DNA of 43,005 nt from Candidatus Izemoplasmataceae bacterium (GTDB lineage Bacteria > Bacillota_I > Bacilli_A > Izemoplasmatales > Izemoplasmataceae). Every line of letters begins with the position of its first letter. Position 1 is the stretch's first letter. The notes beneath the pieces are model-generated. The model was given only the letters and a program-made list of their open reading frames with translations. It had not been told where the DNA came from and did no database searches. Location of the stretch: assembly GCA_965659955.1 (NCBI GenBank), contig CBFHYA010000004.1, positions 19,364 through 62,368 of the forward strand, in the 5' to 3' direction. Made by a program: the position numbers and the translations under genes. This document shows positions 1,587 to 41,851 of this stretch, piece after piece.

Positions 1587-2480
1587 CTAAAATTTAGTGG
1601 GATGGTATTGATCGTAAATGGCTTTGATATGACTGGTCGATAAATGCGTATAAATTTCCGTGGTGGAAACATCCACATGGCCAAGCATCTCTTGAACGTA
1701 GCGTAAATCCACGCCGCGCTCCAAGAGATGGGTCGCAAATGAATGCCTAAGCGTATGCGGACTGACCGTATGGCTAATTCCCGCCTTTAACGCTAAGTCT
1801 TTTAACACTTTAAAAAACCCTACCCGTGAAATAGGATGGCCGTGCCGGTTTAAAAATACATACGCGCTCGGGGCTTTGGCTAGTTTTAACCGGCCGCCTT
1901 CTAAATAGGTTTTTAATGCACTGATCGCATACGCTGAAAGTGGGACGACGCGGCGCTTTTGACCTTTTCCAATGACATCCACACGTGATTCATTGAGGTG
2001 CAGTTGATTGGTCGTGAGTTCACACAGTTCACTGATTCTGAGGCCGGAGCCATAAAGCAATTCAACCATCGCTTTATTGCGTTGAGAAAGCGGGGCATCC
2101 CCGTCGGTTTGCGCGATGATTGCAGTGATATCCTCCATGCTTAACACCACCGGAAGATGCGCTTTTTTCTTCGGCTTGGCAATCCGGGTGATAATGTTTT
2201 CTTTCAGTATTTTTTCTTTCACTAAATACGCATGAAATTGATTTATCGAAGAGAGTTTCCGGGAGAGCGTTGACGCTTGGTAATGCTTTTTTCTTAACGT
2301 CATCACATAGTTCGTGACGTCTTTACGGCTGATTAACTCCGGATCATCCAGACCTCGCACCTCGTTTAAATACGTCACATAATCGGCACAATCTTTAAGG
2401 TAAGCTTGCAGTGTATTCGCTGAAAGCCCAGACGATGCGCGCAAATCATATTCAAATTCTTTTAGCAGTGTCTTCATCAT
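1587..2480 (-). CDS. xerD: Tyrosine recombinase XerD (chromosome dimer resolution)
   Basis: Catalytic signature is visible: LLYGSGLRISE (Arg), HTLRHSFATHLL (H-x-x-R), LGHVDVSTTEIYTH (His, Tyr). The ORF-track start at 2546 lies inside hemW. The Met-Met-Lys at 2480/2477 gives the usual N-terminus MKTLLKEF. Synteny with deoB supports XerD rather than a phage integrase. Confidence 0.85.
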   Translation of the reverse strand: MMKTLLKEFEYDLRASSGLSANTLQAYLKDCADYVTYLNEVRGLDDPELISRKDVTNYVMTLRKKHYQASTLSRKLSSINQFHAYLVKEKILKENIITRIAKPKKKAHLPVVLSMEDITAIIAQTDGDAPLSQRNKAMVELLYGSGLRISELCELTTNQLHLNESRVDVIGKGQKRRVVPLSAYAISALKTYLEGGRLKLAKAPSAYVFLNRHGHPISRVGFFKVLKDLALKAGISHTVSPHTLRHSFATHLLERGVDLRYVQEMLGHVDVSTTEIYTHLSTSHIKAIYDQYHPTKF

Positions 2481-3588
2481 CCAAACAATCCATCCATACG
2501 TTATTGGCGAAAAATAGACCTTTATCCGTGAGTTGTAGTTGATCATTTTTAATCATAATGAGCCCTTCTTCAAGGCGATCTTTAAGGCCCGGAAAGCGCG
2601 TTAAAGGATGCACTCCAAAGGCGGTTTCAAAGGCGGTTACATTCACACCTTCTTTCATCCTTAGGCCCATTAATAGTGTATCATGGATGGGTTGATAGGG
2701 ATAATCGATGCGCGCCTTTAAGCCCTTTTCAAGCATCGCATCGGTGTATTTTTTGACTGACCTTATGTTTTCATAACGGGTATTTTCTAATCGGCCATGA
2801 GCGCCAGCGCCTAATCCAAGGTAGGCTTCATTGCGCCAGTAAATGGGGTTATGGATCGACCTTCTACCGGGCCGTGCAAAACTTGAGATCTCGTAGTGCT
2901 CGTAGCCTTCTTCTTTCATCCGCTTGATGATATGGGCATACATATCAGCCACCAGATCATCATCCGGTAAAGTCAGTAAGCCGTGCTTGATTTGATGATG
3001 AAGTTTCGTATGGTCTTCTAAAATGAGCGCGTAAATCGAATAATGCTCCGCGCCAACTTGAATGAATTTTTCTAAGTCTTCTTGAAATCTGTCCCATGAT
3101 TGAGCGGGCAGGCCAAACATGATATCTAATGAATAATGGGTGAGACCGGCACTTTTAAGATGATCCAAAGCGTTTAAAACGTCGACTTGGCGATGATCAC
3201 GGTTAATCAAAGTCAACAAAGCATCGTTAAACGTTTGCACGCCCAAACTCACCCGTGTGACTCCATACGCTTTTAAAAGCCGGGCTTTCTTAGGGGTTAA
3301 ACTCGATGGATTGGCTTCCACCGTAAATTCCTTGAGATCTTTAACATTCAAATGGTGATTGATTTCCATCAATAACGCTTCAAAGTCTTCATCGGAGAGT
3401 GCGGTGGGTGTTCCCCCTCCAATGTAGACCGTATCGGTAGTTTGAAAAAGTGCCTCTGAAAGTTTCATTTCATAAAAAAGCGCCTTTAAATAGGCGCGTT
3501 TTTTTTCTGGTTTCGCGATTTCTTTAGCAAAGTCACAGTAGGTGCATAGTTTTTCACAAAATGGAATGTGGATGTAGGTCCCAAACAC
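2452..3588 (-). CDS. hemW: Radical-SAM heme chaperone HemW (HemN-like, oxygen-independent coproporphyrinogen oxidase family)
   Basis: CxxxCxxC cluster motif (CEKLCTYCDF) lies 10 aa from the N-terminus. Length and C-terminal domain fit HemW. The GTG start shares one nt with the upstream TAG stop. lepA is nearby, as in Firmicutes. Confidence 0.87.
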   Translation of the reverse strand: MFGTYIHIPFCEKLCTYCDFAKEIAKPEKKRAYLKALFYEMKLSEALFQTTDTVYIGGGTPTALSDEDFEALLMEINHHLNVKDLKEFTVEANPSSLTPKKARLLKAYGVTRVSLGVQTFNDALLTLINRDHRQVDVLNALDHLKSAGLTHYSLDIMFGLPAQSWDRFQEDLEKFIQVGAEHYSIYALILEDHTKLHHQIKHGLLTLPDDDLVADMYAHIIKRMKEEGYEHYEISSFARPGRRSIHNPIYWRNEAYLGLGAGAHGRLENTRYENIRSVKKYTDAMLEKGLKARIDYPYQPIHDTLLMGLRMKEGVNVTAFETAFGVHPLTRFPGLKDRLEEGLIMIKNDQLQLTDKGLFFANNVWMDCLDDEDTAKRI

Positions 3589-8130: not shown

Positions 8131-8481
8131 CGCTTGCATTGAATAAGCCATGTTCTGTCCCCTTTAAAAAAGGGTGGCAACCATTTATCTGTACAATGTA
8201 CCTCGGCGTTAAGTTCAGTTCCTCACGCCAAGTGCCCCTACCAAAATTTGGGTTTCTAGCTTGTGGGGTTTACCCGTTCCACCTCTTTTATTGCTAAAAG
8301 AGCTCGTCTCTGTGGCACTTTTATAGATACTCAAGACTCCGGGGAGCCTCTTTCTCAGCCGTCACCCTTGCGGGTGCATAGAGTTATGGTTTCCTCTATC
8401 ACAATCACTACAGGCAATCGCAGCCTGTGCTAGCATGGACTTTCCTAACCATTTCTGGCTCGGTTGCCTACAATGCAAGGC
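8131..8481 (-). ncRNA. rnpB: RNase P RNA (ribozyme subunit; Bacillus/type-B-like)
   Basis: The minus strand carries the universally conserved P4 strands AGGAAAGUCCAUGC (RC of 8424-8437) and ACAGAACAUGGCUUA (RC of 8143-8157). A 9-bp P1 closes the molecule (CUUGCAUUG, RC of 8471-8479, pairs with CAAUGCAAG, RC of 8133-8141). No ORF is present, and the roughly 350-nt length is appropriate. Ends are good to about +/-5 nt. Confidence 0.85.
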
Positions 8482-15028: not shown

Positions 15029-17320
15029 CTAGAAATAAACCACGGTTACCCCGGCGCCACCCTCACCGCCCTCGCCACTACGAAAACGTTGCACGGCAGG
15101 ATTTTCTTTTAAAGCTGTTTGCACCATGTCCCGGATCGCAAACGTCCCGAACCCATGGATAATCCGGGCAAAAGGAAGCTTCGACAGCGCACAATCATCT
15201 AAGTATTTATCCAGTAAATGGGCCGCTTCTTCGACCCTTAGACCGCGCAAATCAAGTTCGGATGCCACCCGTTTTTTCGGGACACTGGCTTTGGGGATTT
15301 TTACTTTGGGACGTGTTTTTTTCGTATCCACAAAATAAAACTCCGATTCATCCAAGGTGGATTCCACATTGCCCATTAGCACTTGCCAACGACCGGCTTT
15401 AAGCGCTTTTTTTAATTCCCCCTTCCGGTTGAACTTATTCACATGAACCACATCCCCCGGTTGATAGACGTGATCATCCCTTTCCTTTTTATTGGATTGG
15501 GGACTCTCTTGGAAGAGGGTGTCTTTCGCTCGGTTGATTTCATGGGGCTTTAAACGGCTGGCTTTTAACGCATTGACGACGTCTTCAAAGGCCGTCTCTA
15601 AGGATTCTTTATCCCGTTGATATTGACGGGTGAAACGATCTGTCAGTGATTGTTTCTTGGCTTCTACATCCGCTTTTTCTTGCTGGAGGTCGTGTTTTAA
15701 AGCGTCTGTGTCACGTTTTAATTGATTAAGCTGTGCTCGTTCGGTTTCTAAAGCCGCCTTTTTTTGCTCCAACGTTTGAATGAGATCGCTCACGGGGTTT
15801 TGTTCATTTTGAAAATAATCTTCGGCTTTTTCAATGATCGATGGCTTAAATCCTAGACGCCTCGCAATCAGCAAGGCATGGGATTCACCCGGGGTATCCA
15901 GATACAAATGATACGTTGGTTTTAACGTCTCTTTATCAAAGGCCACACTCGCATTGATGGCGGTGGGATGATCATACGCATAGGCTTTGAGCTCAGGATA
16001 ATGCGTCGTCACAAAAATATCGTGCGGATGCTGACTCAAATCATCCATTAAAGCTCTGGCAAAGGCCGCACCTGCTTTCGGTTCGGTACCCCCGCCTACT
16101 TCATCGAGTAAGATGAGTGAACCAGATGGCGCGGTTTGAATGATTCGCTGGATGTTGGTCAAGTGGGATGAAAACGTCGAAAGGGATTGTTCAATGCTTT
16201 GTTCATCGCCAATGTCAGCATAAACACCGGTGTAAAACGGAAGACTGGATCCTTTTTCTGCAGGTATTAATAGACCTGACAAGGCCATCAGTGATAAGAG
16301 CCCTACGGTTTTTAACACCACAGTCTTCCCACCGGTATTGGATCCAGAGATAATCACTAGGTGGGTGTCATGCGAAAGTTCAATGGCATTAGGGACCACT
16401 TCTTTAGGGTCAATCAACGGATGACGGGCATTTTTTAATGCCAAAATAGACCCAAACGCGGCCATCTCCATATTCAACTGTGCGGCATATTCCGCTTTGG
16501 CAAATATCGCATCTAAGGTGCCGATGGTCTCATGGTTGAGTGCTAAGGTTTCATAGGACGTGTGAAGGGTTTGAGAAATCTCTGTCAGGATTCGCTCAAT
16601 CTCAGCCTCAATGGCCGTTTCAATTTTTCTTTTTTCAGCACTCATCTCACCCACGGCAGACGGTTCCATATACACCGTTTCACCACTGGCGGAATAATCC
16701 ACAACACTGCCTTTAAACCGGTTCTTGTAGGTTTGCTTGACCGGAACGACGTAGCGTCCTTGACGCTCGGTATAAAAGGTTTCCGATAACATGTCCCCCG
16801 ATTGATCCACAAGGTTCTTAAGTTTTTGCGTGAGGCGGTTTTCCATCACCCTTAACGCATTTTTGTGTTTTTTAAGATCACTGGATGCATTCTCTTTGAG
16901 GCCTTCGTCATCCACCAACTGATCCAGTTCAATTTTCAGTGTGGATAAAGGTTCTAAAGCGGTTAAATAAGGCTCAAGGGCGTTTGATTCCAAGTCTTCG
17001 GGCACATTCTTAAGCCGTTTATAGACCTGGGTGAGTTCATTTAAAAACCGGCGTATCCGCATGAGGTCTTGAATGCTTAATATCCGGGCAATTTTAATAT
17101 CACGAAGCGGTTTCGCTAGATCGAAGAAATCCCCAAAACGAGGCGCTTTGGCATCTAAAATGTAGCGTTTAGCACTGGTGATTTCACGCATGCTTAAAAG
17201 CGCCGCTTCTTTCGTTTCATGCGGAATTAGACGGGCAATTTTTTCTTGACCGAGCAATGTATTTGAATAATGAGAGATGGCTTTTAATATCGCTGGAAAT
17301 TCCAGTGTTTTTAGGTCCAT
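15029..17320 (-). CDS. mutS2: Endonuclease MutS2 (MutS-II ATPase with C-terminal Smr domain)
   Basis: 763 aa with Walker A GSNTGGKT, the MutS domain V signature and a C-terminal Smr domain (LDLRGLRVEEA...HGFGTFAIR). Confidence 0.92.
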   Translation of the reverse strand: MDLKTLEFPAILKAISHYSNTLLGQEKIARLIPHETKEAALLSMREITSAKRYILDAKAPRFGDFFDLAKPLRDIKIARILSIQDLMRIRRFLNELTQVYKRLKNVPEDLESNALEPYLTALEPLSTLKIELDQLVDDEGLKENASSDLKKHKNALRVMENRLTQKLKNLVDQSGDMLSETFYTERQGRYVVPVKQTYKNRFKGSVVDYSASGETVYMEPSAVGEMSAEKRKIETAIEAEIERILTEISQTLHTSYETLALNHETIGTLDAIFAKAEYAAQLNMEMAAFGSILALKNARHPLIDPKEVVPNAIELSHDTHLVIISGSNTGGKTVVLKTVGLLSLMALSGLLIPAEKGSSLPFYTGVYADIGDEQSIEQSLSTFSSHLTNIQRIIQTAPSGSLILLDEVGGGTEPKAGAAFARALMDDLSQHPHDIFVTTHYPELKAYAYDHPTAINASVAFDKETLKPTYHLYLDTPGESHALLIARRLGFKPSIIEKAEDYFQNEQNPVSDLIQTLEQKKAALETERAQLNQLKRDTDALKHDLQQEKADVEAKKQSLTDRFTRQYQRDKESLETAFEDVVNALKASRLKPHEINRAKDTLFQESPQSNKKERDDHVYQPGDVVHVNKFNRKGELKKALKAGRWQVLMGNVESTLDESEFYFVDTKKTRPKVKIPKASVPKKRVASELDLRGLRVEEAAHLLDKYLDDCALSKLPFARIIHGFGTFAIRDMVQTALKENPAVQRFRSGEGGEGGAGVTVVYF

Positions 17321-18330: not shown

Positions 18331-18732
18331 ATGTTTTGGATCACCGCGGTGTTTGTGTTAATCATCTTCATGGTCGTTGACCTCATTTGGCTGGGCTTTA
18401 TCGGCCGGTCTTTATACCAAAAGTACATTGGGCACTTACTTAAAAAAGACGTTAATTGGACGGCAGCCTTGATTTTTTATGGGCTTTTTGTCCTTGGACT
18501 GACCTATTTTGCCGTTTTCCCCGCGTTAGAAGCATCTTCATTGACCGATGCGCTTCTACTCGGCGGCTTTTTCGGCCTTTTAATGTATGCAACCTATGAT
18601 CTAACCAACCTGGCCACATTAGAGGGCTGGAGCGTGCCAATCACCATCATCGATATGATATGGGGAACCTTTTTAGGGGCGTTAGTCAGTAGTCTGACGG
18701 TGTTACTTATGACTCTCTTTGGGGTGGTGTAA
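18331..18732 (+). CDS. Small four-TM membrane protein (DUF2177-like)
   Basis: 133 aa and entirely hydrophobic helices. A GGAGG RBS lies 7 nt upstream. The stop abuts the next gene's start (TAATATG). Confidence 0.5.
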   Translation: MFWITAVFVLIIFMVVDLIWLGFIGRSLYQKYIGHLLKKDVNWTAALIFYGLFVLGLTYFAVFPALEASSLTDALLLGGFFGLLMYATYDLTNLATLEGWSVPITIIDMIWGTFLGALVSSLTVLLMTLFGVV

Positions 18733-18733
18733 T

Positions 18734-19501
18734 ATGACTTATGCGTTTGGCGCATTGGTACTTATCGCATTCTTTACGCTCGTTTACATTGTGGCCCTCA
18801 TTCGCAATGATTATTCCACCGTGGATGTCTTTTGGGGGATGGCTCAAGTCGTATTAGTGGTGGCCCTCGCGTTTTACTTAGACGGGCATGCGCTTTCTCA
18901 TTGGATCATTTATGGGGCGATTACGCTTTGGGGACTGCGGTTATCGTGGTATTTATACCGACGAAACTGGCATAAACCCGAAGATTTCCGCTATCAAGCG
19001 ATGCGCAAAAAATGGGTGAAATTCGAAAAACTACAGGCCTACATTAAAGTCTATCTCTTACAAAGTGGCTTTGCCTTACTTATGGGCATCACCGTGATCA
19101 GTATGGAGACACTCTCTTTACGCTATTTGGGAGTATTCATCGCAGGGGCGGTTCTCTTCGCGGTTGGGTTCATCTTTGAAACCTTAGCCGATGAACAGAT
19201 GATGGCGTTTCAAAAAATAAAAAAACCGGGAGAAATTCTCACCACAGGCGTATGGAAGTTATCGCGTCATCCCAATTATTTCGGGGAAGTCACCGTATGG
19301 TGGGGCGTTGGAATCATGGCTTTAGCGCATGCGAATACGGTGCTTGTTGCTTTACTGATGCTGATATCTCCGATAACCATTACCTATTTGCTTTTAGGAT
19401 TATCCGGAATCCCCATTTTAGAAAAACGGTATGATGGAGATCCCAACTATGAAGCGTACCGAAAAAATACCAGAGCCTTCTTCCCGTTTCCAAAAAAATA
19501 A
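18734..19501 (+). CDS. DUF1295 / steroid-5-alpha-reductase-like (ICMT-fold) membrane enzyme
   Basis: Polytopic protein with the C-terminal signature G.W..SRHPNYFGE..W.G characteristic of DUF1295/steroid-reductase-like proteins. The ATG at 18734 is preferred over the ORF-track TTG at 18719. Confidence 0.65.
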   Translation: MTYAFGALVLIAFFTLVYIVALIRNDYSTVDVFWGMAQVVLVVALAFYLDGHALSHWIIYGAITLWGLRLSWYLYRRNWHKPEDFRYQAMRKKWVKFEKLQAYIKVYLLQSGFALLMGITVISMETLSLRYLGVFIAGAVLFAVGFIFETLADEQMMAFQKIKKPGEILTTGVWKLSRHPNYFGEVTVWWGVGIMALAHANTVLVALLMLISPITITYLLLGLSGIPILEKRYDGDPNYEAYRKNTRAFFPFPKK

Positions 19502-25665: not shown

Positions 25666-27939
25666 TTACTCGACTACCATACCATCTTCAAGTTCAACTT
25701 CAGAGGTGAGTAACCGCTGAATGGCGTCGAAGGAGAAGATTTCACGGAGCGTTTCACCGGTGGATGGATTGACATACTCAAGTTCAATGTTGGCTTGAGT
25801 CGTATCAAAGTCATCGCCCCAGTTTAGGGTAAAGCCTGACGTGTTCAGTGAGTTAAAGGTATCTAAGAATCCTGCTGCATCTAAGGTTGAACCTGAGATA
25901 CCGCCGAAGCCCATATCAGTCTCACCAGGAATGATGAAGTTGAAGTAGTTATTTGGGAATGGTTCGGCTTGGATCACGATGTCAATACCAATGTCTAAAC
26001 CTTCATTGTAGAATAGCTCTTCAAGTTCTGCTTCGATGTACTCAGCACCAAGTTCTGAACCTTGGGAGTTCGCTTGGATAACGAGTTGAAGTTCAATGAC
26101 ATCACCCTCAGCGTAATCGCCTGCGGCGACTGCGTCTTCAACTGCACTGTCAAAGAAAGCTTTGGCTGCATCAGGGTTGTACCCTTGCGTGGATGGTGAG
26201 AGGCCCTCTAAGACGGTGGCACCATATTCGGTATCACGGAATGGAACCCCACCCGCTGGATCAACGAGGTATGCAGGGGTGAAGTAGAACTGCGCAGGTT
26301 CAGCGGTTCTTTGAACATCGACTGCAAGTTCTTGACGGTTAATACCGAAGTATAACGCGTTACGGAAATCTTCGTAAGCAAGAATTGGTTCAGGAATTAA
26401 GGTTGAATCTGGGAATTGCTCTCTTTGTGATTCTACAGTCCCGTGTGCATTGAGGTTCATACGGAATACAGTAGCCCCTGGAGCAAAACGGATACCTGGA
26501 TAGGATTGATATTCATCAAACCGTGAGGCAGGAAGTCCGGTTGCATCTAAACGACCTGTAATAAAGCTTTGGAACGCGATATCAGGGTCATTGATAATTT
26601 CGAACGTATAACCGGTGTAGAAGGCATCGTTGGAATTATGGAAGTTGGGGTTTGCTTTAAGACGTAAAATACGGTCTGCTTCATAAGTTTCTAAGTAGAA
26701 ACCTCCATTGTATGAAGTGGTTTCAGCGCTAGTTCCATATTGATCGCCCACTTCTTCATAAAGGTCTAAGTTGATTGGTGTCATGACGAAACCGGATAAC
26801 CAGTAAATAACGTTCCATTCACTCATGAGTGGGATGAATTCAAAGACAATACTGTTTCCTTCAACGGAAATACCAACTTCATCCCATTCCACATCGCCAT
26901 CAACATACTCTTGCATGTTGACGATTTCTTGCGCAGGGTTCAAGAAGTCACCACCGCCGGAAATCGCACGGAACCAACCGTTATCTACGGCAAGTTTGTA
27001 AGTGTCTAAGAAATCTTGAGCCGTAATGTCGCCGGCTTCAGCCCCTGTATGATCGGTCCAAACAAGTCCTGAACGGACGGGGACGCTCCATACATTCGCC
27101 ACTTCAGTCCCAAAGACTTCCTCGGAATCAACAGGGCTAGGCATGCCTGAGGCCATTGAAGGTTGTAATTCAAAGCCTGAGAAATCAGAGTTGTAGTTGA
27201 AGAAATAAAGCGCATCTAAGAATGTCGTGATGACATCACTTGAGATGGAATCTTCATAAATCCATTGGTTAAGGGTCGCTGGGTTTTCAGTGAGGCGCGT
27301 ACGGTAAGTGTATTCGCCGACTTCACCGGGTTGACCATCATCCATAATGACTGAAGAGTCATCTTGACTCATCGATGCGTAAGCAATCCCAAAGCCCATA
27401 ACTGGGTCATAGCCTTCGGTTGGAAGTTGCATACGATCTGAGAATAAGTTATATGATGAAGAAGCCCATAAAGGAATTCCTCCGGCTTGACGTTCAATTA
27501 AGAAACGCTCAGCCTTTGCAAAGAATTGATGTTTCAAATCGACTGGAGCAAATTTGAAATCATACACGCCACTGGCAGGAACGAAATCACCCAGTGCTGG
27601 CTCTTCAGGTTCTGGTTCGGGTTCAGGTTCTTCAGCCGCCTCGACCGTGACGGTCCGTGAGACTGAGGCACTTTCGCCATCTGAGTTTTCAACACTATAG
27701 GTTAATGTATAAGTACCTGCTGCATCGACGTTGACCGACCCTGAGACTTCGAGGTCTGCAGTTAAGTCGCCGTCATTTTCATCGGCAGCACTTACCCCAG
27801 CAAGTGGATCAAAACTTTCACCCACTTCTAAGGTGACATTTCCGGTGCCTGAAATGGTTGGAACACTTGGATCGCCAGCACAAGCTGCGAGTCCTGCGAC
27901 AAGCACGAGAAACGATAAAGCTAATAAAACTTTTTTCAT
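25666..27939 (-). CDS. oppA: Oligopeptide-binding lipoprotein OppA (family-5 SBP) with an N-terminal Ig-like domain and a Pro-Glu linker
   Basis: Lipoprotein signal with lipobox LAAC. Residues about 28-100 form a beta-rich Ig-like module (GTYTLTYSV...SRTVTV), followed by EEPEPEPEPEEP and then a roughly 640-aa acidic SBP-like body. It is the first gene of the opp operon. Confidence 0.78.
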   Translation of the reverse strand: MKKVLLALSFLVLVAGLAACAGDPSVPTISGTGNVTLEVGESFDPLAGVSAADENDGDLTADLEVSGSVNVDAAGTYTLTYSVENSDGESASVSRTVTVEAAEEPEPEPEPEEPALGDFVPASGVYDFKFAPVDLKHQFFAKAERFLIERQAGGIPLWASSSYNLFSDRMQLPTEGYDPVMGFGIAYASMSQDDSSVIMDDGQPGEVGEYTYRTRLTENPATLNQWIYEDSISSDVITTFLDALYFFNYNSDFSGFELQPSMASGMPSPVDSEEVFGTEVANVWSVPVRSGLVWTDHTGAEAGDITAQDFLDTYKLAVDNGWFRAISGGGDFLNPAQEIVNMQEYVDGDVEWDEVGISVEGNSIVFEFIPLMSEWNVIYWLSGFVMTPINLDLYEEVGDQYGTSAETTSYNGGFYLETYEADRILRLKANPNFHNSNDAFYTGYTFEIINDPDIAFQSFITGRLDATGLPASRFDEYQSYPGIRFAPGATVFRMNLNAHGTVESQREQFPDSTLIPEPILAYEDFRNALYFGINRQELAVDVQRTAEPAQFYFTPAYLVDPAGGVPFRDTEYGATVLEGLSPSTQGYNPDAAKAFFDSAVEDAVAAGDYAEGDVIELQLVIQANSQGSELGAEYIEAELEELFYNEGLDIGIDIVIQAEPFPNNYFNFIIPGETDMGFGGISGSTLDAAGFLDTFNSLNTSGFTLNWGDDFDTTQANIELEYVNPSTGETLREIFSFDAIQRLLTSEVELEDGMVVE
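27598..27633 (-). repeat. Low-complexity (Glu-Pro)n coding repeat forming the OppA interdomain linker
   Basis: The plus strand reads ...TTCAGGTTCTGGTTCGGGTTCAGGTTCTTC..., encoding EEPEPEPEPEEP on the minus strand. Confidence 0.7.
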
Positions 27940-28211: not shown

Positions 28212-29297
28212 TTATGCAAAACTGTCGTAATACGTATGTTCTCTAGGGAGTTCGTGTTTGTTAAGGACGGCAATACACGCATGAATCATACCCGGTGATC
28301 CACATAGATAAGCTTCGGAACCGGATAAATCGCCGGTCATCCGGTCTAAGACATCGGTGATGAGGCCGGTTTCACCTTCCCAATTATCTTCGGGTAAGGG
28401 TTCAGAGAGTGCTGGAATGTATTCAAAGTTCGGGAATTCTTTTTGCAGTTCAACGAATTCTTCGGTGTAGTAAAGATCTTTTTTGGTTTTCGCCCCAAAG
28501 AAATAGCGGACTTTACGCGGCATATTGAGATCACGTAACCGGTAAAGAATCGAACGAATCGGTGCTTTCCCCGATCCCCCAGCGATACATACAATATCGC
28601 GATCAGATTCTTCTCTTAAGTAGAAGTCTCCATACGGTCCCGTAATTTTCATTGGGTCACCCGGTTGCATGACTTCATGAATAAAGGTCGTGGCAACCCC
28701 TTTATTTACCAATCTGACTAGGAATTCAACATGATCTTTGACTTTCGCATCACCCGCAAAGGAATACGCACGGACGGCTTCTACTCCCGGAATGATGAAC
28801 TGGGCATATTGGCCAGGATGGAAATCCAACGTTTTAGGATTGACCATTTTAAAGCGGACGAGTTTGATGTCGTAGGTTAAATCTTCTAAGGCCGCCAGTT
28901 CGACCTCGTATTCTTTGGCCCCAAAAAGACTTTCAGGGATTTCAATTTTGGTATCTTGAGCGATTCGGGTTTGGCAGGAAAGTCTAATGCCGTTGGCCGC
29001 ATCTTTCGGCCCGATGAAGGGTTCTTCGGTGGGTTTTAGATCAAAGGCACCTTCGGTGACTTTGACTTTACATAGGCCACATGTCGCTTTTCCCCCGCAT
29101 GCGGAGGGAATATAGATTTGATTTTTGGAGAGAATATTGAGTGCGGTATCGGATTCATTAATTGGAATTTGCAGTGAATCATTGACCGTTAATACTTTTT
29201 CACCACTGCTGCCAAAGGCGGTTTCTGCAGCAACGAGTAATAGACTCATTAAGACAAGGATGCCAATGAGGATGCTAATGACAATAATCGGTTCCAT
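28212..29297 (-). CDS. nqrF: Na+-translocating NADH oxidoreductase subunit F (NqrF): TM anchor, 2Fe-2S ferredoxin domain and FAD/NADH domain
   Basis: N-terminal TM helix; PSACGGKATCGLCKVKV...LSCQTRI (plant-type 2Fe-2S); RAYSFA (FAD); IAGGSGKAPIRS (NADH); C-terminal CGSPGM. It is closely collinear with Vibrio NqrF as I recall it. Confidence 0.9.
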   Translation of the reverse strand: MEPIIVISILIGILVLMSLLLVAAETAFGSSGEKVLTVNDSLQIPINESDTALNILSKNQIYIPSACGGKATCGLCKVKVTEGAFDLKPTEEPFIGPKDAANGIRLSCQTRIAQDTKIEIPESLFGAKEYEVELAALEDLTYDIKLVRFKMVNPKTLDFHPGQYAQFIIPGVEAVRAYSFAGDAKVKDHVEFLVRLVNKGVATTFIHEVMQPGDPMKITGPYGDFYLREESDRDIVCIAGGSGKAPIRSILYRLRDLNMPRKVRYFFGAKTKKDLYYTEEFVELQKEFPNFEYIPALSEPLPEDNWEGETGLITDVLDRMTGDLSGSEAYLCGSPGMIHACIAVLNKHELPREHTYYDSFA

Positions 29298-29306
29298 CGT
29301 TTCCTC

Positions 29307-29891
29307 CTAAAAGAATGAGAGTCCGGTAAAGCCAATAAAGGCTAAGGATAAAATCCCCATGATGATGAATACAATCCCGCGGCCGGCGAGGCCTCTTGGG
29401 ACGGTGGAATGATTTTCCATTTTTTCGCGAATGGCCGCAATCAAGATAATCGCCAAGGCCCAGCCAATGCCGGCCCCGAGTGAAAAGGTTGCGGTTTCTG
29501 CAAAGTTATAGCTCCGGTTCACAAAGAACTGAGACACGGCTAAGACAACGCAGTTGACCGTGATGAGTGGAAGAAATAATCCAAAGTTGTTGTACATTCT
29601 GGGGGATACTTTTTCAATAAAGATTTCTAAAAACTGAACGGTCGTCGCAATGGTAATGATGAACACTAAAATGGATAACCGCTCGGTTCCAGTCGCTTCT
29701 AACAATAAATAAATGGGGTAATTAATGATCGCGGTTAAAAAGACCACGAAAATAACGGCTAAGCCCATCCCCCGTGCATTTTTTACGTTCGTCGAGATGG
29801 CAATAAGTGGACACATCCCCAAAATAAAGATGAGGGCAATGTTTCTGGAAAGGACCGACTCAATAAAAACTTCAATTAAATTAATCATCAT
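29307..29891 (-). CDS. nqrE: NqrE/RnfA-family membrane subunit
   Basis: 194 aa, 6 TM, with the conserved motifs LGMCPLIA and ITVNCVVLAV (membrane Cys pair). Confidence 0.88.
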   Translation of the reverse strand: MMINLIEVFIESVLSRNIALIFILGMCPLIAISTNVKNARGMGLAVIFVVFLTAIINYPIYLLLEATGTERLSILVFIITIATTVQFLEIFIEKVSPRMYNNFGLFLPLITVNCVVLAVSQFFVNRSYNFAETATFSLGAGIGWALAIILIAAIREKMENHSTVPRGLAGRGIVFIIMGILSLAFIGFTGLSFF

Positions 29892-29898
29892 CTACCCC

Positions 29899-30534
29899 CT
29901 ATTCCGCTGCCACTTCAAAGTTTTGGGCCCATTCACGGACACCCCAAATGATTAATCCAAGCACAAAGAATCCACCGGGGGCTAAGGCCATGACGGTCCA
30001 GTTCACAAAGGTTTCTGGCATCACACGGAAGTTAAGGATGGTGCCAAAGGCTAAGGCTTCACGGATAATCGCAACCGCGATTAAAATCCAGGTGTAGCCT
30101 AAAGAGTTGGCAATCCCATCAAAGAACGTATACTTCATCGGGTTTTTAACGGCAAAGGCTTCAGCGCGTCCCATCACGATACAGTTGGTGACGATTAAGC
30201 CTAAATAAGCGCCGAGCGCAGCAGCAATGACAGGGAAATACGCTTCTAAAAACATTTGTACCATGATGACGAAGGCCGAAATGATGACCATATAGGTAAT
30301 CATGCGGACCCGGGCGGGAATGACTTTACGTACCATGGAGACCACCAAGGAACTGGCAGTGACCACAAACGTCACGGCAAGACCCATAGCAATCGCGTTT
30401 TCCACGCGGTTAGTAACGGCTAAGGCCGAACAAATCCCGAGTACAGCCACGACAATAGGGTTTTCTTTGAATAAGCCATCTTTGGTGATGTTAAACCATT
30501 TTGTGTATTGAATCTTTAACCAAAATTTTCGCAT
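29899..30534 (-). CDS. nqrD: NqrD/RnfE-family membrane subunit
   Basis: 211 aa, 6 TM, with the conserved motifs LGICSALAVT and VTNCIVMGRAEAFA (membrane Cys pair). Confidence 0.88.
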   Translation of the reverse strand: MRKFWLKIQYTKWFNITKDGLFKENPIVVAVLGICSALAVTNRVENAIAMGLAVTFVVTASSLVVSMVRKVIPARVRMITYMVIISAFVIMVQMFLEAYFPVIAAALGAYLGLIVTNCIVMGRAEAFAVKNPMKYTFFDGIANSLGYTWILIAVAIIREALAFGTILNFRVMPETFVNWTVMALAPGGFFVLGLIIWGVREWAQNFEVAAE

Positions 30535-31133
30535 TATTCGCCTCCGAGTGTGGCTTGGTAAGCCGGTATCACTTGTTCATAACTGTCATTCAGAATGGTT
30601 TGAAACGCACTGGATGTCGAAGTCGCTCCGGTAATCGCGTCGACTTGATTGGGTGCGCTTGCCCCTTCTTTTAATACTTCCACGATGGGGTCAAACACGA
30701 CCCCCTCATATTTGGCTAAGTAGGGAAGTTCAACAATCCGGCCCCCAAGGCCCGGTGTTTCTTGTTGGGCGAGGATGCCCACATTTTCGATCGTTCTAAG
30801 GTCTTCATTGAGTGTTAAGACGCCAATAATAGGCCCCCATACACCACCACCTTCGATTTCAAAGCTAATGCTTCCCGTATCGGGGTTGCGGTAGACTGGA
30901 ACATTCACCCCATCGATGGTGAGTTCCACTTTCTCGACATTTTCGGTAAAGGTGTCATAAATATTAGAGGTATTATACTCAATCTCAAACGCATCCAAAA
31001 TCTTCGATTGCAACAACGCTTCTTCGTTGCGCGTGATACGCTCTGAAGTCAAGACGTCCATGCCAATGAGCAAGGTCGATGTGATAACGCCCATCGCAAC
31101 GACAAAACCCATAATTTTTAGAATTCGGTTCAT
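30534..31133 (-). CDS. nqrC: NqrC/RnfG-family subunit (single TM plus FMN_bind domain)
   Basis: 199 aa with an N-terminal TM helix and the covalent-FMN attachment motif VDAITGATSTS near the C-terminus. Confidence 0.8.
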   Translation of the reverse strand: MNRILKIMGFVVAMGVITSTLLIGMDVLTSERITRNEEALLQSKILDAFEIEYNTSNIYDTFTENVEKVELTIDGVNVPVYRNPDTGSISFEIEGGGVWGPIIGVLTLNEDLRTIENVGILAQQETPGLGGRIVELPYLAKYEGVVFDPIVEVLKEGASAPNQVDAITGATSTSSAFQTILNDSYEQVIPAYQATLGGE

Positions 31134-32071
31134 GCCGCTTCCTCCTTACCCGTTAACCACGCATCAATGAGCGCACCCACGGCACTCATAATGATGATGG
31201 CAAAAATGAAGCCTTCAGCAAACGTGGCAAAATAGCGAATGATGAATGTAATAAATGCGACGCCAGCTCCATAAAGCCAAATGGCTTTTTTATTCACCGG
31301 GGCATGGACAGGGTCACTGGCAATGAAAATCGCCCCAAAGAGTAACGAACCCGTAAACACGGAAGGAATCGTTCCCCCGGTCGCGCCAAAGAGTTCGAAA
31401 ATCCCTGCAGTCACAATATAACTTACTAAGATCGATACCGGTAAACGCCAATCGATGACTTTTAAGAATGCCAAAACGGCCCCTAAGCCAATCAACAATA
31501 GTCCAAAGGTTTCTCCGATGTTACCCGGTACAAATCCCAATACTAAATCACTTAAGGAATAAAACGTCGATCCACTCGCATTGATTTGATGCAGCGGCAT
31601 CACAGGCGCTAAAGCATCGAGTGAGCTTTGCGAGAATGGATTAAACCAACCAAATGTTTGGGGATCATACCACCCAAAGATTAAAGCTGGAAACGAGATC
31701 ATTAAAAACATAATCCCAACGGCGGCGGGATGGAAAATGGTTTTTCCGTAACCACCGAATAATTGTTTGGCAAATAAGTTTCCGAACACAACGCCAACGC
31801 CTGCCATCCATAATGGCGCACTAGGAGGTAGCATTAACGCATAAAGTAAAGGAAAGACCAACCAACCTTCGTCGATTTTTTTCTTTTTAGCACGGGCAAA
31901 AACAAAGTCAACCCCCACACTGAGGGTAATGGACAGCCCCGCGATTACTAAAACGTACCAACCAAAAATCAAAAAAGAAGCGCTTAAAACAACGCCTAAG
32001 GCTGCTTCTAAATAAATGAGTTTTTTGCCGGTAATCGCTCGGCTGACAAACGCAGGTTGCGAGTCACTCAT
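31130..32071 (-). CDS. nqrB: NqrB/RnfD-family membrane subunit (RnfD-sized, 313 aa)
   Basis: Polytopic protein with RnfD/NqrB-type blocks (FGGYGKTIFHPAAVG; GETFGLLLIGLG; SDPVHAP). It overlaps nqrC by 4 nt. Confidence 0.8.
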   Translation of the reverse strand: MSDSQPAFVSRAITGKKLIYLEAALGVVLSASFLIFGWYVLVIAGLSITLSVGVDFVFARAKKKKIDEGWLVFPLLYALMLPPSAPLWMAGVGVVFGNLFAKQLFGGYGKTIFHPAAVGIMFLMISFPALIFGWYDPQTFGWFNPFSQSSLDALAPVMPLHQINASGSTFYSLSDLVLGFVPGNIGETFGLLLIGLGAVLAFLKVIDWRLPVSILVSYIVTAGIFELFGATGGTIPSVFTGSLLFGAIFIASDPVHAPVNKKAIWLYGAGVAFITFIIRYFATFAEGFIFAIIIMSAVGALIDAWLTGKEEAA

Positions 32072-35236: not shown

Positions 35237-35263
35237 CTTTTAGCGGTTTTAATCAGAAAAAAT

Positions 35264-35292
35264 CCAAAAAAAAACCAACCTCGAAAGGTCGG
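35264..35292 (-). terminator. Rho-independent terminator of the rhodopsin gene
   Basis: Minus-strand stem CCGACC/GGUUGG (one G-U pair) with a 6-nt loop, followed by a U10 run, about 22 nt after the stop codon. Confidence 0.6.
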
Positions 35293-35314
35293 TTTTTTAA
35301 ACAAAATTTTAAAT

Positions 35315-36118
35315 TTACGCTTCCACGTAACCTTGTTCTTCAGAGAGCCATGTGGATGAAACATTAAGCATAACTCCATAGAAGATTTTGGAAGTAACGT
35401 CGGCGATGGTGTAAAGCACTTGCTGTGCGACAATCGCTAAAGCGGCAACTTCGGAAGCTGAGCCACCGAATAAAGGCATAATGTACGCCACTGGATAAAT
35501 GGTCCATGAGACATAGAATAAAGGTAAGATGGCGGCGAAGAGTGGTTCTGCTTTGCTGCCTTTCATGTTGGCACGGCCTTCTTTGATAACTTGTGTGATA
35601 AGAACTAATACCCAAATGTAGAAGAGGGTTGAAATAACACCCCATACGATCCACATAGTGATATCAGTTTCAGCGCCACGACCTGGTTCATAGAACTGAC
35701 CAATATAACCAGTAATGATCATGAGTGATCCACTGGCAGTAAAGCGCACTAAATATTTCTTAAATGCGGCACCCGCAATTCCAGCTACGAAAAGAATTTG
35801 GATGAGAAGATGAGGGACATCAATCAACCAGTTCAGGTAACGGAAACCGTTGGTGAAAGTACTTTCGCCAGAAGCGACGTATTGGCCGCCTTCTAGGACG
35901 AATGCATCAGCCCAACTTTGGGATTGTAAGAATAAGAGTAAGAACGCTGATACCATAACGACACCACTAAGTACACTCGATGGGCGATATTTAGGTGCGT
36001 TATTTTTGATGGTTAATACGAAATAAAGAAGTGCTGCACCCATAGCAGCAAATCCAAAGGTTAAAACATGTTGCACAACTTCAAATTGCCATACTGCTAA
36101 GCTGCTTAAACCTGTCAT
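35315..36118 (-). CDS. Microbial (type-1) rhodopsin with the NDQ motif, a predicted light-driven Na+ pump (NaR/KR2-like)
   Basis: 7-TM protein. Helix C reads FRYLNWLIDVPHLLIQILFV, giving N, D and Q at the three functional positions. Helix G reads YTIADVTSKIFYGV, with the retinal Schiff-base Lys and counterion Asp. Long identities to KR2 as recalled: LLYF.LTIKN, VVMVSAFLLL, MIITGYIGQFYE. The AAGGAGG RBS is 4 nt before the ATG at 36118, and the ORF-track start at 36169 has no RBS. Confidence 0.93.
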   Translation of the reverse strand: MTGLSSLAVWQFEVVQHVLTFGFAAMGAALLYFVLTIKNNAPKYRPSSVLSGVVMVSAFLLLFLQSQSWADAFVLEGGQYVASGESTFTNGFRYLNWLIDVPHLLIQILFVAGIAGAAFKKYLVRFTASGSLMIITGYIGQFYEPGRGAETDITMWIVWGVISTLFYIWVLVLITQVIKEGRANMKGSKAEPLFAAILPLFYVSWTIYPVAYIMPLFGGSASEVAALAIVAQQVLYTIADVTSKIFYGVMLNVSSTWLSEEQGYVEA

Positions 36119-36152
36119 TTGTTCCTCCTTGATATAATATAAAGATACATTT

Positions 36153-36181
36153 ATTGTACTCCTATCCATTAAACATTACAA
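36153..36181 (-). promoter_or_regulatory. Sigma-A-type promoter of the rhodopsin gene (TTGTAA - 17 nt - TACAAT)
   Basis: The RC of 36176-36181 is TTGTAA and the RC of 36153-36158 is TACAAT, with exact 17-nt spacing. This predicts a leader of about 28 nt. Confidence 0.5.
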
Positions 36182-36232
36182 ATAGAAACGCTTACAAATT
36201 TTGAAACAAAAAAATATTTTAGGCATATTGCA

Positions 36233-36260
36233 CAAAAAAAAGCATACCGTTTGGTATGCT
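36233..36260 (-). terminator. Rho-independent terminator after the lipoprotein gene, insulating the rhodopsin gene
   Basis: 8-bp stem AGCATACC/GGTATGCT with a 4-nt loop, flanked by A8 on the plus strand (T8 on the minus strand) and T5. Confidence 0.7.
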
Positions 36261-36274
36261 TTTTAAACTATTTA

Positions 36275-39210: not shown

Positions 39211-39297
39211 TGGTGCGAATGGGGGGATTTGAACCCCCACAGCCTTGCGGCCACATGGCCCTCAACCATGCGCGTCTACCAGTTCCGCCACACTCGC
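39211..39297 (-). tRNA. tRNA-Leu (anticodon GAG), class II with a long variable arm, CCA encoded
   Basis: The RC folds as acceptor GCGAGTG/CATTCGC, anticodon stem CATGG/CCATG with loop TTGAGGG, variable arm TGGCCGCAAGGCTGT and T-arm GGGGG-TTCAAAT-CCCCC, ending ACCA. Confidence 0.93.
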
Positions 39298-39300
39298 AGG

Positions 39301-39375
39301 TGGTGGAGAATGACGGATTCGAACCATCGACCCCTTGCACGTCAAGCAAGTGCTCTCCCACTGAGCTAATCCTCC
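39301..39375 (-). tRNA. tRNA-Val (anticodon GAC), CCA encoded
   Basis: RC: GGAGGAT-TA-GCTC-AGTGGGA-GAGC-A-CTTGC-TTGACGT-GCAAG-GGGTC-GATGG-TTCGAAT-CCGTC-ATTCTCC-ACCA, a full cloverleaf. Confidence 0.93.
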
Positions 39376-41549: not shown

Positions 41550-41568
41550 AAGAACTCCTTAAATTAAG

Positions 41569-41642
41569 CGTTCCGGGAGGGATTCGAACCCCCGACCTGC
41601 AGCTTAGGAAGCCGTTGCTCTATCCTACTGAGCTACCGGAAC
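41569..41642 (-). tRNA. tRNA-Arg (anticodon CCU), no encoded CCA
   Basis: RC: GTTCCGG-TA-GCTC-AGTAGGATA-GAGC-A-ACGGC-TTCCTAA-GCTGC-AGGTC-GGGGG-TTCGAAT-CCCTC-CCGGAAC-G. The anticodon stem has an A27:C43 mismatch and a G-U pair. The 3' flank is CTT. Confidence 0.88.
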
Positions 41643-41671
41643 GTAATTTCATTATACTTACCCTTTGACAT

Positions 41672-41693
41672 AAAAAAAAGACCCGAGGGTCTC
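41672..41693 (-). terminator. Short hairpin plus U8 immediately after tRNA-Gly, a likely terminator separating it from tRNA-Arg(CCU)
   Basis: The minus strand reads AGACC-CUCG-GGUCU followed by UUUUUUUU. A TATAAT box (RC of 41651-41656) follows, 9 nt before the tRNA-Arg(CCU) 5' end. Confidence 0.45.
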
Positions 41694-41767
41694 TGGAGCG
41701 ATAGAGGGGAATCGAACCCCCGTCTTCACCGTGGGAGGGTGACGTTCTACCATTGAACCACTACCGC
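41694..41767 (-). tRNA. tRNA-Gly (anticodon CCC), CCA encoded
   Basis: RC: GCGGTAG-TG-GTTC-AATGGTA-GAAC-G-TCACC-CTCCCAC-GGTGA-AGAC-GGGGG-TTCGATT-CCCCT-CTATCGC-TCCA. Confidence 0.92.
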
Positions 41768-41774
41768 ACGAAGA

Positions 41775-41851
<77 letters not shown>

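Follow-up and report, generated by a model that had tools for sequence, protein, structure and literature searches.

A sodium-pump-type (NDQ) rhodopsin gene in an Izemoplasmataceae bacterium and the branch of the family around it

The classic sodium-pumping rhodopsins (NaRs) are proteins of Bacteroidota, and a gene of this kind on a contig of a Candidatus Izemoplasmataceae bacterium raises the question of whether a host related to the wall-less Mollicutes could be running a light-driven sodium pump, and how it came by one. The gene lies on the minus strand of contig CBFHYA010000004.1 (GenBank assembly GCA_965659955.1, forward-strand positions 19,364 to 62,368), in a stretch of 43,005 nucleotides that we call the window and from whose first letter all window positions are counted. 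The original prediction, made from the letters alone, held that the gene encodes a rhodopsin of the Na+-pump type in a Firmicutes/Mollicutes-like genome, and that it had plausibly been acquired laterally by an unusual host. Our results support the first of these claims and the placing of the host, and give us good confidence that this is a functional NaR-type rhodopsin of the Izemoplasmataceae bacterium. They do not support the last.

Read from its sequence, the gene is real, intact and strongly conserved, and encodes a sodium-pump-type (NDQ) rhodopsin. The product matches Pfam Bac_rhodopsin (PF01036; E 4.7e-39, residues 15-251). Its best sequence matches among solved structures (phmmer) are 8jh0 (E 9e-70), identified through the fold matches as IaNaR, the Na+ pump of Indibacter alkaliphilus, and then KR2 (E 6e-62), the rhodopsin 2 of the marine flavobacterium Krokinobacter (Dokdonia) eikastus and prototype light-driven Na+ pump (PDB 4xtl, 3x3b and 6rew-type pentamers). 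Identity to KR2 is 46% over the whole length (BLASTP), and the alignments to both pumps run without gaps through helices C and G. phmmer, BLASTP and a multiple alignment all place N96, D100 and Q107 on KR2 N112, D116 and Q123, which correspond to D85, T89 and D96 of bacteriorhodopsin. D240 falls on D251 and K244 on K255, and the Schiff-base lysine and counterion aspartate of helix G are thus present, as had been predicted. The strings that the prediction quoted (FRYLNWLIDVPHLLIQILFV, YTIADVTSKIFYGV, LLYFVLTIKN, VVMVSAFLLL and MIITGYIGQFYE) were all found, in gap-free alignment to KR2. The NDQ set marks all Na+-pumping rhodopsins so far known, and in the O state Na+ is coordinated by N112 and D116 (PMC7195465).

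The AlphaFold2 model, built with 54 homologues, has a mean pLDDT of 91.8 and shows seven transmembrane helices and a B-C hairpin. In a Foldseek comparison with the PDB it matches structures of KR2 best, with a TM-score of 0.89. Because the sequence alignments and the fold matches of the model alike keep N, D and Q at the motif positions, the structure-guided comparison leaves the original assignment standing.

The likeness to KR2 extends well beyond the motif. The window protein keeps H30, S64, V67, S70, L74, Q78, N106, R109, N112, W113, D116, Q123, Y154, Q157, E160, W215, Y218, P219, D251, S254 and K255 (KR2 numbering, used from here on for positions compared with KR2). The internal Na+ path, consisting of the S64-Q123 cytoplasmic gate, the S70/V67 internal site, R109, the Q78 gate and S254, is therefore the same as in KR2, and it is found in 119 to 120 of 120 homologues. 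These are the best 120 of 1232 database homologues, 59-93% identical to the window protein, and all such counts below refer to them. All 120 have N, D and Q at the motif, and 119 to 120 keep N112, D116, Q123, R109, D251, K255, S64, S70, V67, L74, Q78, N106, Y154, Q157, E160, H30, W113, W215, Y218 and S254. The pair at the pentamer interface, H17 (H30) and Y138 (Y154), is invariant across the clade.

In the databases these homologues are labelled at most ‘bacteriorhodopsin’ or ‘rhodopsin’. Together with the window protein they form a branch of the NaRs that is old and distinct from the rest. Well over a hundred sequences of the clade are public, and the named sources are Izemoplasmatales, Acholeplasmataceae, metagenome-assembled genomes (MAGs) of Bacilli or Bacillota, and Spirochaetota (Alkalispirochaeta, Salinispira). 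In a midpoint-rooted neighbour-joining tree of 83 sequences the whole clade separates from KR2, IaNaR and the Bacteroidota and Chloroflexota NaRs in 100 of 100 bootstrap replicates. Within it the close Izemoplasmataceae group has a bootstrap of 100, the spirochaete part 97 and the non-spirochaete part 59. Clustering at 50% identity reduces the clade to a single representative (P0026), with the next representative just 51% identical. On sequence and tree the branch is that of Izemoplasmatales, Acholeplasmataceae, other uncultured Bacilli and Spirochaetota. It is sizeable, falls within a known family, and has apparently not been studied.

The clade is marked most clearly by Gln at position 243, present in 120 of 120 homologues. 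E11 is missing in 118, with an N-terminus about 13 aa shorter, and Ile stands at 122 in 118. Among the 50%-identity representatives with NDQ or NTQ motifs, E11, E160 and R243 are near-universal, the exceptions being the Q243 clade, P0140, and P0163, which is an NTQ representative without the full pattern. P0140 (242 aa, 45% identity) has F-D-Q at the motif and Gln at 243, and is a motif variant near the clade. Other features are not specific to the clade: N81S, Y108F and Q26E/D are common to the Chloroflexota NaRs.

Comparison with characterised rhodopsins places the protein more closely. IaNaR shares the NDQ motif, S61 and a residue other than Gly at 263 (Thr), but it keeps R243, D102, F122 and M119 and groups with KR2 and the Bacteroidota proteins outside the clade. 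The pentameric ErNaR-type subgroup (PDB 8qle, 9tbd) shares the motif and the fold (E 1e-50, TM-score 0.90), but has a carboxylate at position 74, where the window protein (L61) and all 120 homologues have Leu. The representatives with E74 (P0141, P0143, P0160) keep E11 and R243, unlike the window protein. The NTQ chloride pumps (ClR, Nonlabens marinus; PDB 5g28) are a sister family in the same superclade (E ~1e-45) with N112 and Q123 in common. They have Thr at 116, whereas the window protein and all 120 homologues have Asp, and most ClR-type representatives keep E11 and R243. The type-1 rhodopsin of Exiguobacterium sibiricum (ESR) has, as here, a host of the class Bacilli, but it is distant (E 3e-18, probably PDB 4hyj); ESR is a characterised rhodopsin of Bacillota that pumps protons and does not have the NDQ motif.

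Two side observations concern the database entries. NDQ rhodopsins occur in MAGs labelled ‘Staphylococcus epidermidis’ and ‘Pleurocapsa’ (L036, L038, L049, L051), where they cluster with sequences of uncultured Bacilli and Anaerolineae respectively. These bins are probably mislabelled or contaminated. One contig (L044) carries two rhodopsin genes, at 103-882 and, on the opposite strand, at about 1925. The first is an NDQ rhodopsin, 50% identical and with E11 and R243, while the second is only 28% identical.

Ion entry and release

Apart from the extracellular triad and the surface Na+ site, all the criteria that could be tested on the sequence place the protein in the NaR family. The function best supported is outward Na+ pumping, as neither the internal binding site nor either gate is disrupted. 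By analogy with KR2 the protein most likely uses light to move Na+ out of the cell, with its retinal coming from outside or from the products of unlinked genes. All-trans-retinal would be bound to K244 and isomerised by light, with D100 receiving the Schiff-base proton. Cytoplasmic Na+ would pass the gate formed by S51 and Q107, bind transiently near N96, D100 and D240, and leave past R93 and Q65, turning light energy into sodium-motive force. The protein would be made from a lone gene transcribed from a conserved sigma-70 promoter.

Several observations weigh against this picture. No transport, spectral or retinal-binding study is known of any member of the clade, this protein included. In the protein itself the extracellular E11-E160-R243 cluster is not kept: E160 alone is retained, Gln occupies position 243, and E11 has been lost along with the N-terminal helix that carries it. 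Nor is the inter-protomer surface Na+ site kept, as D102 is replaced by Ser, Y25 by Phe and T83 by Ala, with Glu at 101. The ion-uptake entrance is S61/N263, against N61/G263 in KR2, whose cation selectivity shifts when the two positions are engineered (PMC6457933). Finally, Blh-type retinal synthesis requires O2, and Izemoplasma in culture is strictly anaerobic and comes from dark deep-sea sediment (PMC8397711); unless the MAGs come from photic habitats, the ecology of a light-driven pump in such a lineage has no explanation.

In KR2 the inter-protomer site is made by the side chains of D102 and Y25' and the carbonyls of T83' and F86', and the triad of R243, E11 and E160 divides the ion-release cavity from the bulk, an exit route having been proposed there (PMC6457933). 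Substitution of E11, E160 or R243 lowers stability but Na+ pumping is retained, and release past Q78 toward the cavity beside the inter-protomer site is favoured (PMC7195465). Because the triad mutants still pump, the triad is typical of the family yet not required for its function; these two studies make both the triad and the surface site dispensable for pumping in KR2 (PMC6457933, PMC7195465). The surface site also varies across the clade and across other NaRs, and so does not define the family. The release cavity of the window protein keeps only E160, because the capping helix with E11 is missing and R243 has become Gln. As one acid and one base have been lost jointly, the net charge of the cavity would be unchanged. 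Q78, N106, Q157 and E160 are all retained.

The original prediction had listed four deviations from KR2: a His after DVP (M119), an Ile before the Q (F122), a shorter N-terminus (by 13 aa) and the loss of D102, here Ser. All are present in the alignment. H119 is specific to the close Izemoplasmataceae group (12 of 120 homologues) and one spirochaete, other subclades having Met or Asn, and the remaining deviations are common to other NaRs. Gln for R243, the absence of E11, Ser for N61 and Asn for G263 had been overlooked; what defines the clade is the loss of E11 combined with Gln at 243, I122 and N263. The window protein further differs from KR2 by a five-residue insertion in the D-E loop (EPGRGAETD, against EVSN).

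These differences are the basis of the strongest alternative, that the protein is a cation pump with a NaR fold whose selectivity or release is unlike that of KR2, moving K+ or larger cations, for example, or having a shifted preference between Na+ and H+. We consider this unlikely, though it deserves attention. The altered entrance is typical of the clade (S61 in 106 and N263 in 101 of the 120 homologues) and lies at just the two positions whose modification shifts selectivity in KR2. The exit has neither the E11/R243 lid, with Q243 in all members and E11 in almost none, nor the D102/Y25 surface site. Position 119 separates H, N and M subclades, with T122 accompanying N119 in the L021-L043 set of genomes, and helical periodicity suggests that the extra polar residue H103 (M119) would lie on the D116-Q123 face, at i+3 from D116 and i-4 from Q123. 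However, the entrance also varies among accepted NaRs, being S/T in the Chloroflexota proteins and in the solved pump IaNaR (S61, T263), and this last shows that such variation is compatible with Na+ pumping. The KR2 variants that pump K+ have a bulky hydrophobic residue at 263 (G263F), not Asn. The intact Na+ pumping of the triad mutants (PMC7195465), and the complete conservation of the internal Na+ site and both gates, also argue for a Na+ pump.

Retinal and sodium

If the protein is a Na+ pump, its chromophore must be accounted for. The prediction that no retinal or carotenoid gene lies within the 43 kb was confirmed by a Pfam scan of all 38 large open reading frames and by tblastn, in which spirochaete crtY and blh queries had no match in the window. 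When spirochaete crtY, blh and LitR-like queries were run against 87 loci, the only matches were in spirochaete loci. Near the Bacilli-type loci there was no crtY or blh within at most 10 kb on each side, some contigs being much shorter. A database search with the spirochaete Blh returned 115 hits, none of them named as Bacillota or Mollicutes, which is a weak negative because only about a quarter of the hits carry names.

The spirochaete members of the clade are different. On the Alkalispirochaeta chromosome (L086, 8963-13105) the homologous opsin is followed by a lycopene cyclase (crtY) and a Blh-type dioxygenase, and is preceded by a divergent regulator with MerR and B12-binding domains (LitR/CarH-like). 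A crtY-blh pair also follows the opsin in L011 and L012, and the regulator alone accompanies it in three further spirochaete loci (L007, L024 and L042). The full spirochaete set is a complete and probably light-regulated opsin-retinal cassette. The rhodopsin-crtY-blh combination occurs in L086, L011 and L012 and not in the window or the Bacilli-type loci examined. As neither the window nor its Bacilli-type relatives have a linked carotenoid or retinal gene, the host most likely obtains retinal from its surroundings or from unlinked genes. Rhodopsin-bearing microbes that lack retinal synthesis and import external retinal do exist.

Some genes nearby may be linked to sodium transport. Three kb away lies a cluster of five NqrB/C/D/E/F-like genes, encoding an RnfD/NqrB-like protein (313 aa), an FMN_bind protein (199 aa), two Rnf-Nqr membrane subunits (211 and 194 aa) and a protein with Fer2, FAD_binding_6 and NAD_binding_1 domains (361 aa). 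The best NCBIfam matches are nqrF, nqrE, nqrD, nqrC and rnfD (with nqrB a close second), all under the curated cut-offs, and no gene for NqrA, RnfC or RnfB lies beside the cluster. The cluster may encode a hybrid Nqr/Rnf-type Na+-translocating complex. L002, L003, L005 and L085 retain it, in each case no further than about 3 kb from the NDQ rhodopsin.

Similar associations are seen elsewhere in the clade. In a 68%-identical relative (L082/L083, 1-9377) an RnfCDGEAB-type cluster lies some 4 kb from the opsin, and two Fe-hydrogenase-like genes are close by. In the N119 subclade the rhodopsin is flanked by a MATE gene and prfA, and an F1Fo (atp) operon follows 5 kb downstream (L084, with the same operon in L088). 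The c subunit of the L084 F-ATPase (16658-16921) has the pattern GIGEG...SETTGIY, which resembles the two-carboxylate Na+-binding c-ring motif of Fusobacterium nucleatum. That light-driven pumping supplies an energy economy based on sodium would be a coherent model for these hosts. Culture work describes such wall-less bacteria as strictly anaerobic sediment fermenters that degrade DNA. The only cultured Izemoplasma is described as having an RNF complex that transports Na+ together with an F-type ATP synthase, and neither ‘rhodopsin’ nor ‘light’ occurs as a word in its description (PMC8397711).

It could also be that scarce Na+ or missing retinal leaves the protein working as an outward proton pump in vivo, or idle as an apoprotein. 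NaRs do move H+ when Na+ is low (PMC7195465), and one subclade comes from MAGs with isolate names suggestive of lakes or rivers (such as LaPlata and NASQAN). The failure to find retinal synthesis genes near any Bacilli-type member, or a Blh with a Bacillota or Mollicutes name, would also fit. We think this very improbable. Very strong purifying selection (a ratio of nonsynonymous to synonymous divergence, dN/dS, of 0.03-0.07 against four related genomes) and the codon bias of a highly expressed gene argue against an idle gene, the lineage of the window has Na+-type respiratory or Rnf-like genes beside the rhodopsin, and rhodopsin-bearing microbes that take up retinal from outside are known.

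The gene and its ancestry

The open reading frame as listed runs over 35315..36169 on the minus strand and would encode 284 aa from its first ATG. That ATG, at 36169, lies within the promoter and has no Shine-Dalgarno sequence, and the 98%-identical homologue in L002 has an in-frame stop six codons 5' of the true start, so we rejected it. The start is at ATG 36118-36116, because AAGGAGG lies 5 nt ahead of it, a GGAGG-type site precedes the equivalent start by 5-8 nt in each of the clade members checked, and relatives have stops upstream (four to seven codons 5' of the start in L005, L007, L014 and L021). The original prediction of a seven-helix rhodopsin was right, while its length of 268 aa becomes 267 with this start. 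An apparent ‘KEE’ matching KR2 E11 is only the Shine-Dalgarno sequence AAGGAGGAA read in frame. The features of the gene and the other features of the window are given in Table 1.

Table 1. Coordinates of the rhodopsin gene, its signals and other features of the window
Feature	Position	Strand	Remark
Rhodopsin coding sequence	35315..36118	-	267 aa + stop
H17 codon	36068-36070	-	KR2 H30
S48 codon	35975-35977	-	KR2 N61
N96 codon	35831-35833	-	KR2 N112
D100 codon	35819-35821	-	KR2 D116
H103 codon	35810-35812	-	KR2 M119
Q107 codon	35798-35800	-	KR2 Q123
E144 codon	35687-35689	-	KR2 E160
Q232 codon	35423-35425	-	KR2 R243
Counterion D240 codon	35399-35401	-	KR2 D251
Schiff-base K244 codon	35387-35389	-	KR2 K255
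N252 codon	35363-35365	-	KR2 G263
Shine-Dalgarno AAGGAGG	36124..36130	-	5 nt ahead of ATG; conserved across six upstream regions
Sigma-70-type promoter	36153..36181	-	-35 TTGTAA 36181-36176, 17-nt spacer, -10 TACAAT 36158-36153; 9/12 consensus positions
Box TTTGTAAGCGTTT	36186..36198	-	directly 5' of -35; TGTAAGCGTTT invariant in six Izemoplasmataceae genomes
Terminator of upstream RsgI_M-like gene	36237..36264	-	12-bp stem + U run; -15 kcal/mol, z -4.0
Rhodopsin terminator	35260..35298 (hairpin 35269-35298)	-	13-bp stem + U run, 17 nt past stop; -14.9 kcal/mol, z -3.4
NqrB/C/D/E/F-like cluster	28212-32071	-	five genes
Opp-type SBP_bac_5/Ig-like binding-protein gene	25666-27939	-	
RNase P RNA	8139-8476	-	class B
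Xer-like tyrosine recombinase gene	1587-2546	-	
tRNA genes	39211-39375 and 41568-41851	-	Leu-GAG, Val-GAC, Arg-CCT, Gly-CCC, Arg-TCT
DUF2177 and DUF1295 genes	18331-19501	+	adjoining membrane-protein genes; DUF1295 weakly also Pfam PEMT (phospholipid methyltransferase)

The prediction that the gene is monocistronic, with a TTGTAA-17-TACAAT promoter, a ribosome-binding site and terminators on both sides, held in every part: the signals are conserved and both hairpins are more stable than expected. Across the window and L001-L005 the two promoter hexamers are kept despite a variable spacer sequence, though the raw count of promoter-like sites in the region is not above chance. The stem of the upstream terminator, which shields the rhodopsin gene from read-through, is preserved through compensatory changes in L005. 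Directly 5' of the -35 hexamer the TGTAAGCGTTT box is kept even in L005 (91% identity), where its flanks have diverged. It may be an UP element, a second -35 or a regulator site. With the -35 the box forms a direct repeat of TTTGTAA at a spacing of 16 nt. Its resemblance to a CcpA cre site has no statistical backing: the full consensus is not matched, and the window shows no enrichment of either pattern.

The codon usage of the rhodopsin gene is atypical for the window (z 4.4), favouring TTC, GGT, ACT, GCT/GCA and GTT/GTA and avoiding NNG. This makes it second in codon bias to the Opp-type binding-protein gene, which has the strongest (z 10.6), and the two deviate in the same direction (r 0.82); the window offers no ribosomal protein gene as a calibrator. 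Because of this parallel we read the bias as an expression-linked bias of the host and did not adopt the explanation of foreign codon usage. Its direction suggests that both genes are highly expressed. Such a bias can also lower the synonymous divergence (dS) of the rhodopsin.

The host itself is not in doubt. The window has an RNase P RNA of class B, the Bacillota/Mollicutes type, and NCBI places Izemoplasmataceae in the Mollicutes, order Izemoplasmatales. Genes 91-99% identical to the rhodopsin occur in MAGs named Candidatus Izemoplasmataceae, ‘uncultured Tenericutes’ and Candidatus Izimaplasma (L001-L005, one genome per species). With the RNase P RNA, the 96-99% identical genes among the Izemoplasmataceae and ‘Tenericutes’ MAGs bear out the predicted Firmicutes/Mollicutes-like host.

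In these five independently assembled MAGs the rhodopsin lies between matching neighbours. The order in L002 and L003 is CBS, MATE, thioredoxin-like, TrxB, RsgI_M-like, rhodopsin, dNK, ABC-F, N-acetyltransferase, NqrBCDEF-like and Opp-type binding protein. L004 and L005 agree as far as they extend and match, with no dNK match in L005. The exact protein was also found adjoining the same dNK gene in an independent run assembly. This and the shared order exclude misassembly or misbinning. In a much more distant genome (L085) a 66%-identical homologue occupies the same neighbourhood on the opposite side of the ABC-F gene (N-acetyltransferase ... rhodopsin, GDPD, ABC-F, NqrBCDEF-like, binding protein).

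Measures of divergence fit with long residence. The G+C content of the rhodopsin gene is 0.434 against a window mean of 0.443 (sd 0.023; z -0.4). Compared with L003-L005, the flanking genes have 39-92% amino acid identity and saturated dS (at least 1), while the rhodopsin, at 91-97%, is the best-conserved protein of the neighbourhood, with a dS of 1.0-1.2 that is somewhat below most of the flanks. There is no sign of a mobile element around the gene, the other window features being the Xer-like gene, the RNase P RNA and the five tRNA genes. Close homologues are also absent from mobile-element collections: PLSDB plasmids have only 26-29%-identical rhodopsins, and the phage collection has none.

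On this comparative evidence the gene is a long-standing resident of the Izemoplasmataceae lineage, though there may have been occasional recombination among Izemoplasmataceae species. The lateral acquisition that had been thought plausible was not recent, given the native G+C content, the gene order shared by five MAGs although their flanking genes have fallen to 39-86% amino acid identity, the L085 homologue and the large clade. The host also turns out not to be unusual for this branch, because clade members are spread widely in Izemoplasmatales, Acholeplasmataceae, other Bacilli and Spirochaetota. The idea that the gene is foreign, through a chimeric assembly or bin or a very recent transfer from Bacteroidota, is close to refuted: the Bacteroidota origin of the classic NaRs, the atypical codons (z 4.4) and a dS against L004 and L005 (1.1-1.2) under that of most flanking genes are outweighed by the common neighbours in five MAGs and the independent assembly, just 46% identity to KR2, a separate clade with bootstrap 100, native G+C content, a codon deviation that parallels a host gene and can itself lower dS, and the lack of close homologues in plasmid and phage collections.

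What the branch may tell us

The route by which KR2 releases Na+ is debated, the choice being between the E11-E160-R243 cavity and a path past Q78 to the inter-protomer site (PMC6457933, PMC7195465). The clade provides a natural test of this, as E11 and R243 have gone together, and often D102 as well, while Q78, N106, Q157 and E160 stay. More tentatively, the clade could be a functionally distinct, ‘lidless’ subgroup of the NaRs that pumps Na+ although the E11-E160-R243 cluster, the N-terminal cap and the Na+ site between protomers are gone, and in which the changed entrance (S61/N263, together with H119 in Izemoplasmataceae) could alter selectivity or kinetics. In this speculative picture the protein would be a retinal-scavenging, light-powered booster of the sodium-motive force in wall-less fermenters with Nqr/Rnf-type complexes and possibly a Na+-coupled ATP synthase. 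NaR scaffolds with other entrance residues are also candidates for optogenetic tools.

If the protein is the outward Na+ pump that its internal path suggests, light-driven Na+ pumping extends to the wall-less Izemoplasmatales and Acholeplasmataceae. Some members of these groups would then live in the light and use it to supplement their sodium economy, apparently without making their own retinal.

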